NCBI RefSeq assembly: GCF_051903065.1
Contig: NZ_CP178438.1
Origin: Escherichia coli
Lineage (GTDB): Bacteria; Pseudomonadota; Gammaproteobacteria; Enterobacterales; Enterobacteriaceae
DNA: 64,000 bases
Reading direction: 5' to 3' (one strand)
Part shown: positions 50,202 to 50,468 of the stretch, in pieces
How the letters are laid out: every line of letters starts with the position of its first letter
How positions within the stretch are numbered: position 1 is the stretch's first letter
Notes under the pieces: generated by a model
What the model was told of the DNA's origin: nothing
What the model saw: only the letters and a program-made list of their open reading frames with translations
The model's database searches: none
Program-made: the position numbers and the translations under genes

Positions 50202-50464
50202 TTATTGCCTGGTTGACGCTTCTGCATCGTAATGCACCACGCACTGCCAGTCGCTGCCCTGCTGGCAATATATCGCTTCGGTCTGCCCAGGGATCACCCA
50301 TTGTATTTCCTCGCCGGGGGGACAGGTCAGCCAAATGCATAACCCGCAGCCGCCGCGTAAAACACGGGGAATATCGCTGACGCGAAAAGTCATGCCCGCT
50401 GCCTGCAATGCCTTGCGGGTTTGTATCACGCCGACCGTGGAGTGGAATAAAAATAAAAACTCTT

Positions 50465-50468
<4 letters not shown>
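50202..50468 (-). CDS. Small Cys-rich hypothetical protein (88 aa), translationally coupled downstream of yjiL
   Basis: ATG overlaps the yjiL stop (ATGA); contains GGCGLC and CPPGEE motifs. Confidence 0.5.

Follow-up and report, generated by a model that had tools for sequence, protein, structure and literature searches.

What role is played by a small cysteine-containing protein whose gene overlaps that of the putative ATP-dependent activator of a double-cubane reductase? The question is raised by a stretch of Escherichia coli DNA of 64,000 nucleotides (nt) (assembly GCF_051903065.1, contig NZ_CP178438.1), referred to here as the window, in which an open reading frame (ORF) of 88 codons plus a stop lies at 50202-50468 on the minus strand. 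The feature is supported by the ORF listing, a Pfam match, RefSeq annotation and the ratio of nonsynonymous to synonymous substitution rates (dN/dS). This ORF is ytiA, which is already annotated, and its novelty as a finding is low; ytiA is a genuine small protein gene, the last in a yjiM-yjiL-ytiA unit. From family membership and gene context, YtiA may be a Cys41-based sulfur/selenium carrier that works with the ATP-driven YjiL/YjiM reductase, a reading to which roughly even odds are given (a probability of about 0.5).

The sequence-only reading of this stretch had described an 88-amino-acid (aa) ORF whose ATG overlaps the yjiL stop codon as ATGA, and both features are seen in the sequence of the minus strand. 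The protein encoded in the window is MKEFLFLFHSTVGVIQTRKALQAAGMTFRVSDIPRVLRGGCGLCIWLTCPPGEEIQWVIPGQTEAIYCQQGSDWQCVVHYDAEASTRQ (88 aa). It had been left unsure whether the ORF is annotated in reference genomes; it is, as ytiA, both in K-12 (WP_000657675.1, 85 aa, with a 4-nt overlap with yjiL) and in strain 23CRST027 (WP_047623641.1, 88 aa, 100% identity over the 501-nt query), and the RefSeq labels read "ytiA: DUF3343 domain-containing protein" or "putative Se/S carrier protein". The guess at a DUF3343-like small protein was likewise borne out by the match to Pfam PF11823 (Se_S_carrier, formerly DUF3343), which scored 48.2 bits against a cutoff of 25 (E=7.6e-13) and spans YtiA residues 4-59, equivalent to profile positions 2-57 of 69. 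No NCBIfam model matched YtiA, and comparison of its sequence with PDB chains yielded no informative match (the best, at E=0.043, was a complement protein). When window positions 50100-50600 (501 nt) were compared by BLAST with 5,426 complete E. coli genomes, the region was found in 5,385 of them, and the conserved part of ytiA (50258-50475) was covered to at least 80% in 5,381 of the 5,426. The 8-kb stretch around ytiA contains 44 ORFs of 40 aa or more; hence, the presence of the ORF alone is no proof, and the case rests on conservation and family evidence.

Homologs of YtiA were retrieved by unconstrained protein search from Escherichia, Citrobacter, Klebsiella, Raoultella, Kosakonia, Phytobacter and Atlantibacter, and 22 columns are invariant among them, all within residues 1-44. 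A set of 51 species-level genomes, comprising 14 named Enterobacteriaceae genera and one metagenome-assembled genome labelled only 'Proteobacteria', was retrieved with a degenerate DNA pattern for DIPRxLxxxCGLC. Since this pattern demands D-I-P-R-x-L-x3-C-G-L-C, the invariance of those residues in the 51-genome set is given by construction, and the statements on residue conservation made here rest on the unconstrained protein searches. The reading frame is intact in 51 of the 51 genomes, at 78-89 aa, and neither stops nor frameshifts were found in the homologous regions; the proposed conservation of the ORF and its overlap across Enterobacteriaceae was thus confirmed throughout the set. The dN/dS, calculated by the Nei-Gojobori method among the alleles of the window, K-12, K. 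pneumoniae and Atlantibacter, was 0.07-0.19 for codons 1-46 and 0.2-0.6 (relaxed) for codons 47-76, with synonymous divergence between genera near saturation. Judged by these ratios, ytiA is under purifying selection. The Pfam match, purifying selection and the intact frame in all 51 species genomes together place ytiA above a chance ORF.

The gene in K-12 is the same one, in the same position after yjiL and with the invariant cysteine, but the allele of the window differs from it in length (88 vs 85 aa) and in its last ~20 residues. The two are ~96% identical over the first ~200 nt (to about codon 67) and then diverge abruptly. The variable C-terminal tail, from about codon 67 (50202-50270, minus strand), was delimited by the K-12 DNA alignment, the relaxed dN/dS and length variation. 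Most E. coli genomes match the ytiA region only from window position 50258 onward, and only 639 of the 5385 genomes have the 3' end and downstream DNA of the window strain. The abrupt divergence and this sharing point to a lineage-specific replacement boundary inside the variable tail of ytiA. The divergence from K-12 covers 50202-50270 and continues downstream to about 49890.

At the junction (50465-50468, minus strand), the ytiA ATG at 50468-50466 lies over the yjiL TGA at 50467-50465, giving an overlap of 4 nt. An overlap of the ytiA start with the yjiL stop is kept in all 51 species genomes; it is 4 nt long in 38 (ATGA in 30, GTGA in 8), 1 nt in 12 (TAATG, TGATG or TAGTG) and 8 nt in the remaining one. 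An overlapping junction is also present in K. pneumoniae, in Atlantibacter and in a distant trio of the same genes (L007), and in a second distant trio (L063) the two genes are instead 18 nt apart, with a Shine-Dalgarno-like AGAGGA of the downstream gene's own. The conserved stop/start overlap is the architecture expected of translational coupling, and translation of ytiA is probably coupled to that of yjiL. Three proteins of 217-220 aa (P0125, P0142 and P0144) combine part of a BcrAD_BadFG domain with a DUF3343 segment across the overlapping junction; these may well be frameshift or gene-calling artefacts, or else rare true fusions, and were not used as evidence. Multi-stretch profile matches to FG-GAP/M23 proteins were set aside as low-complexity noise.

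The association extends to both upstream genes. In 51 of 51 genomes yjiL lies directly upstream of ytiA, with yjiM upstream wherever the stored DNA is long enough. The spacing of the trio is kept in K. pneumoniae and Atlantibacter, where the flanking genes are entirely different. The two low-GC relatives mentioned above, L007 and L063 (32% and 39% GC), carry the HGD-D / BcrAD_BadFG / DUF3343 trio in yet other neighbourhoods; comparison of these loci thus shows ytiA moving with yjiM-yjiL into different genomic surroundings. Relative to the window, the identity in these two trios is 81% and 74% for YjiM, 64% and 58% for YjiL and only 34% for YtiA; YtiA thus stays attached to its partners while evolving much faster than they do. 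The trios lie at 2064-4252 in L007 and 3004-5246 in L063, and in the latter the neighbouring efp, sugE and entericidin genes look Enterobacterales-like. A promoter and terminator scan of 49850-52700 gave counts equal to the shuffled expectation and no convincing terminator after ytiA.

The gene yjiL (50465-51232, minus strand; RefSeq coordinates transferred from the annotation of strain 23CRST027) encodes a BcrAD_BadFG-family ATPase (PF01869, E=4e-75; TIGR00241, 361 bits), the putative ATP-dependent reductase, or activator, of YjiM. The gene yjiM (51242-52393, minus strand) encodes a double-cubane [8Fe-9S] cluster protein (DCCP) of the HGD-D family (PF06050, E=2e-121). The sequence-only reading had taken YjiM as dehydratase-like, and this label has to be replaced: the protein is now classed as a double-cubane-cluster reductase, with 530.7 bits against a cutoff of 350 for the equivalog model NF040772, "double-cubane-cluster-containing anaerobic reductase". 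It also matches the solved DCCP of C. hydrogenoformans (6ENO) with E=3.4e-75. With YjiM above the NF040772 cutoff and a paired BcrAD_BadFG ATPase, YjiL, the partner genes qualify as a double-cubane system. The published pattern of seven cysteines, CX19CX18-19CX29CX166-170CX32-34CX32C, has no literal match in YjiM, the best fit being C40-x18-C59-x18-C78-x29-C108-x164-C273-x28-C302-x32-C335; membership among the DCCPs therefore rests on the NF040772 and 6ENO matches. Ten cysteines are invariant among five enterobacterial-type YjiM homologs.

DCCP systems have been described as consisting of two components, and what they do physiologically was given as unknown (PMC9351452). Of 970 DCCPs, Haft and Gwadz located 955 in genomes that encode SelD, and they raised selenium-related roles (10.1101/2022.07.06.499078). 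The E. coli locus resembles the DCCP/DCCP-R system of C. hydrogenoformans (PDB 6ENO, 7YYL) in that YjiM matches the DCCP and YjiL is the matching BcrAD_BadFG ATPase; the latter system is an ATP-driven low-potential reductase, also with a physiological substrate that is not known (PMC9351452). It differs in that the system was published as two components, whereas the E. coli locus has a third, DUF3343 gene, and in that YjiM is without the N-terminal channel-closing extension (PMC7317905).

YtiA itself has five cysteines, at positions 41, 44, 49, 68 and 76. It had been called Cys-rich, a label that goes too far for a protein of 88 aa in which, of the five, C41 and C44 alone are conserved. From 1.84 billion representatives, a profile search yielded 121 members of the DUF3343 family; when 34 diverse ones, sharing 19-84% identity with YtiA, were aligned, only F8, P34 and C41 proved invariant, with G42 nearly so. 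The position of C44 is variable across the family, often S, A, G or T, and a trio-linked homolog (P0140) has CGLS in place of CGLC. The RGGCGLC motif of residues 38-44 (50337-50357, minus strand) thus contains the family-invariant C41, to which C44 adds a CxxC in the enterobacterial subfamily. The sequence-only reading had singled out GGCGLC as a possible metal- or sulfur-binding motif, and this part of the reading is supported: its first cysteine is C41, and the family has been proposed to carry sulfur or selenium (PMC5322559).

The AlphaFold2 model of YtiA has a mean local confidence (pLDDT) of 91 and a pTM of 0.81. Its predicted topology consists of strand 2-8, helix 11-23, strand 28-32, loop 33-42 and strand 43-49, followed by a short helix 53-57 and strands 63-70 and 73-79. 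The N-terminal core, codons 1-46 (50331-50468, minus strand), would accordingly hold strand 1, helix 1, strand 2 and the loop ending in the Cys motif, and the modelled loop places Cys41 at the end of the conserved DIPRxLRGGC segment. The predicted fold is a generic ferredoxin-like sandwich; a Foldseek search with the model returned only generic ferredoxin-like or PII-like matches, none at E<=0.001, and no specific solved relative. Three other assignments of the protein were tried and rejected: as a carrier of the TusA/SirA/YedF family (PF01206), for which both an HMM (hidden Markov model) match and a TusA-like fold were lacking; as a thioredoxin-like CxxC oxidoreductase, since the second cysteine is lost in many homologs and the topology is ferredoxin-like (strand-helix-strand-strand-helix-strand-strand); and as a PII/GlnB-like protein, with no P-II Pfam match and a best Foldseek hit at E=0.02 and a TM-score of ~0.5.

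Lin et al. proposed that DUF3343 proteins are selenium/sulfur chaperones (PMC5322559). YtiA fits the size that was given for PF11823, a stand-alone protein of ~80-100 aa (PMC5322559), with 88 aa in the window and 78-89 aa in the 51 species, and C41 fits the highly conserved single cysteine described there. The third trait, a neighbourhood of YedE, YedF or selenocysteine (Sec) lyase genes, is not seen: no such homolog was found in the 64-kb window, and the neighbours of YtiA are yjiL and yjiM. YtiA differs in this respect from those PF11823 members that prompted the Se/S-carrier idea. Such a neighbourhood is a contextual trait of part of PF11823 and not a membership criterion.

Members of DUF3343 outside the YtiA subfamily were found beside a TusA-DsrE fusion, beside YedE and TusA, beside YedE alone (in Budvicia and on one metagenomic contig), beside TusA and a class-V aminotransferase and, in a Coriobacteriia genome, beside LysR, a class-V aminotransferase and YedE. 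These neighbourhoods are of the sulfur/selenium trafficking type. A metagenome scan whose sole seed was the DCCP motif GETTCDGKK, common to YjiM and 6ENO, gave at least 120 loci, on which an HMM built from the diverse DUF3343 alignment was run with reversed sequences as control. Among the matches listed, it found 29 ORFs in 25 loci, four of which are enterobacterial, and none in the reversed sequences. Again among the matches listed, a DUF3343 ORF lay within 200 nt of a DCCP or activase gene and on the same strand in 22 of 120 loci; of the 57 loci in which the DCCP/activase block is flanked by 500 nt or more on each side, 13 contained one.

Two types recur. The first, "APTPRxAxxCCGISL", directly follows a DCCP of ~430 aa, and the second, "PGRIIPVPxEIxAGCGLAW", directly precedes the activase. 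ORFs of the CCG type after the ~430-aa DCCP were seen in loci L084, L102, L111, L140, L154, L173, L177 and L179; this subtype, with the motif APTPRxAxxCCG(I/L/V)S, has two adjacent cysteines at the conserved site, where the YtiA subtype has GCGLC.

The wider content of these loci was searched with class-V aminotransferase, TusA-DsrE and YedE proteins from DUF3343 loci as queries. Among the matches listed, a homolog of at least one kind was present in 14 of 21 non-enterobacterial loci with DUF3343 and in 11 of 95 loci without it. A recurring metagenomic operon, found in L161, L128, L070 (1713-6985), L079 (1333-6000) and L102, contains the DCCP, the activase, one or two DUF3343 genes, a class-V aminotransferase of the cysteine desulfurase/Sec lyase type and a TusA-domain (YedF-like) protein. 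By Pfam, L161 (179-4446) has the order DCCP-activase-DUF3343-Aminotran_5-TusA and is bounded by unrelated genes, L102 (8289-11958) has Aminotran_5-DCCP-DUF3343-activase, its flanking genes having been checked and found unrelated, and in L128 (6262-10294) the protein upstream of DUF3343 carries a TusA domain. L079 repeats a gene order known from Slackia.

The cluster in question is Shel_25420-25470 of Slackia heliotrinireducens (Lin et al. 2015), which encodes an activase, DUF3343, a Sec-lyase-family enzyme, YedF, a further DUF3343 and an HGD-type subunit (PMC5322559, Table 1), the gene set of L079, L070, L128 and L161. The STRING table of Lin et al. for Slackia lists the activase and HGD-type subunits among the DUF3343 neighbours, uncommented (PMC5322559). 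The E. coli locus differs from this cluster in having only the DCCP, the activase and DUF3343, with no lyase or YedF homolog in the 64-kb window.

The nearest analogy for a carrier role is with the TusA/SirA/YedF proteins (PF01206), which are, like YtiA, small single-domain alpha/beta proteins with one essential cysteine proposed as persulfide carrier. As in the case of DUF3343, their genes neighbour YedE and genes of the cysteine desulfurase type; genes with a TusA domain also share operons with DUF3343. The differences are that YtiA has no PF01206 match and no CPxP around its conserved cysteine, and that no TusA structure appears among its top fold matches. The cysteine of TusA sits at a helix N-terminus, unlike that of YtiA, which is predicted at the end of the loop before strand 3.

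The carrier role is suggested by the family-invariant C41, the occurrence of DUF3343 beside YedE, TusA/YedF and class-V aminotransferases, and the proposal of Lin et al. (PMC5322559). The tie to DCCP chemistry is supported by the DUF3343 ORFs next to DCCP or activase genes in the metagenomic loci and by the occurrence of DCCPs in SelD-encoding genomes. In the scheme envisaged, ribosomes ending yjiL would re-initiate at the overlapping start, such that YtiA is made together with YjiL. YtiA would act as a thiol carrier whose Cys41, at the end of loop 33-42, holds sulfur or selenium as a persulfide or perselenide; in the enterobacterial proteins, an S-Se-S bridge between Cys41 and Cys44 would be a further option. 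YjiL, using ATP, would charge the double-cubane [8Fe-9S] protein YjiM with low-potential electrons, and YtiA would give its sulfur or selenium species to YjiM or take it from there. The likeliest net reaction would be an ATP-driven reduction of carrier-bound S(0) or Se(0) to sulfide or selenide, or else a reduction of a related sulfur or selenium adduct. In other bacteria, these three parts occur in operons alongside an enzyme of the cysteine desulfurase/selenocysteine lyase type and a carrier resembling TusA/YedF; at this locus E. coli has the trio only. In a more general form, DUF3343 proteins would be an overlooked third component of a sizeable subset of DCCPs, carrying cysteine-bound sulfur or selenium that is reduced by the [8Fe-9S] enzyme; this extension is tentative and is held to be doubtful.

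Several observations weigh against the carrier reading. The specific chemistry, that is, what would be carried and what reduced, is conjecture and much less certain than the role as such. About four in five DCCP loci among the matches listed are without a DUF3343 gene, and DUF3343 is hence not an obligatory component in the loci sampled. In 125 metagenomic loci re-translated with TGA read-through, no TGA (selenocysteine) codon was found at the conserved cysteine of DUF3343. No desulfurase, TusA or YedE homolog was detected in the 64-kb window, which holds only one DUF3343 ORF. The C-terminal third of YtiA is hypervariable, and the protein evolves much faster than YjiM (34% vs 74-81% identity in the same loci). 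Lastly, no paper on E. coli ytiA, or linking ytiA with yjiL/yjiM, was found in the literature searched; the matches to the name 'ytiA' that were inspected concern an L31-paralog gene of the same name in B. subtilis and relatives and not the E. coli gene.

The gene linkage would be the same if YtiA were not a catalytic partner but a maturation factor, delivering the extra bridging sulfide (or selenide) of the [8Fe-9S] cluster of YjiM. Systems that assemble cofactors typically have neighbours of the cysteine desulfurase and TusA type, DCCPs occur together with SelD, and a 2(4Fe-4S)-Se cofactor was named as a formal possibility (10.1101/2022.07.06.499078). Such a function is nevertheless considered unlikely: ~80% of the DCCP loci among the matches listed have no DUF3343 nearby, the published work on DCCPs involves two components only and never mentions DUF3343 (PMC7317905, PMC9351452), and the family is not specific to DCCPs, as other DUF3343 genes are found with YedE/YedF where there is no DCCP.

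It could also be proposed that YtiA is a small dithiol/disulfide CxxC redox protein without bound sulfur or selenium, which feeds electrons to YjiL or serves as the disulfide substrate of YjiM, given that C41-G-L-C44 is invariant in the enterobacterial proteins of the unconstrained search and that CGxC occurs in many other DUF3343 members. The second cysteine is, however, absent in many members, including P0140 (CGLS) and most of the DCCP-adjacent metagenomic ones (CGISL, CGLAW), and the predicted fold is not thioredoxin-like. From the properties of DCCPs (PMC9351452), moreover, a disulfide would need no ATP-boosted reductase of very low potential, and a redox role of this kind seems quite improbable.

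An equally small chance is given to YtiA as a PII- or ACT-like regulatory or adaptor subunit that binds YjiL, YjiM or a small ligand and tunes the ATPase or the electron transfer of YjiL/YjiM, Cys41 then being structural or sensing only. The best Foldseek matches are PII signalling proteins (E=0.02, TM ~0.5), the similarity of fold being weak; the conserved loop 33-42 lies between strands 2 and 3, in the place of the PII T-loop, and translational coupling suits a stoichiometric subunit. That the ORF is a chance or decaying frame in the 3' region of yjiL with no functional protein, as the many ORFs of similar size in the region and a C-terminal third of low conservation that varies among E. coli lineages might suggest, is refuted for practical purposes by the Pfam match, a dN/dS of 0.07-0.19 at saturated dS, the frame intact in every one of the 51 species and a confident AlphaFold model.

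The DNA downstream of ytiA is unlike that of K-12. Between the yjiK homolog (SdiA-regulated; 45435-46427, minus strand) and ytiA lies a gene for a pentapeptide-repeat protein of 758 aa (47613-49889, minus strand), where K-12 has nothing. The gene contains tandem DNA repeats, with nine units of 24 nt at 47725-47939, and repeats of 9/18-nt units at 48267-48396 that encode PATPATP-like runs. The space between the pentapeptide gene and the yjiK homolog is occupied by a DDE transposase ORF (PF13737 and PF01609, IS5-like; 46371-47339, plus strand). At this position strain 23CRST027, an exact match over the 501 nt compared, has only ~270 nt, and the transposase ORF looks like a recent insertion of an insertion sequence.

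As an ORF, ytiA is ordinary, being an annotated and conserved E. coli gene of a named family, and its value lies in its context. The physiological role that DCCPs have is described as unknown (PMC9351452), and in the structural and biochemical papers they figure as systems of two components; a link between DUF3343 and DCCPs was not found stated in the DCCP papers searched. As a modest lead from the comparison of loci, DUF3343 appears to be a recurrent third element of double-cubane reductase loci, within sulfur- and selenium-mobilising operons. Its presence beside DCCP/activase genes in about one-fifth of the metagenomic loci, among the matches listed, offers a concrete testable handle, and the three genes of E. 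coli, being genetically tractable, make it possible to ask whether protein-bound sulfur or selenium is what these nitrogenase-like reductases act on. If true, the reading of DUF3343 as a third component would give orphan DCCPs, including YjiM, a physiological role: they would mobilise selenide or sulfide, with SelD as one possible recipient.
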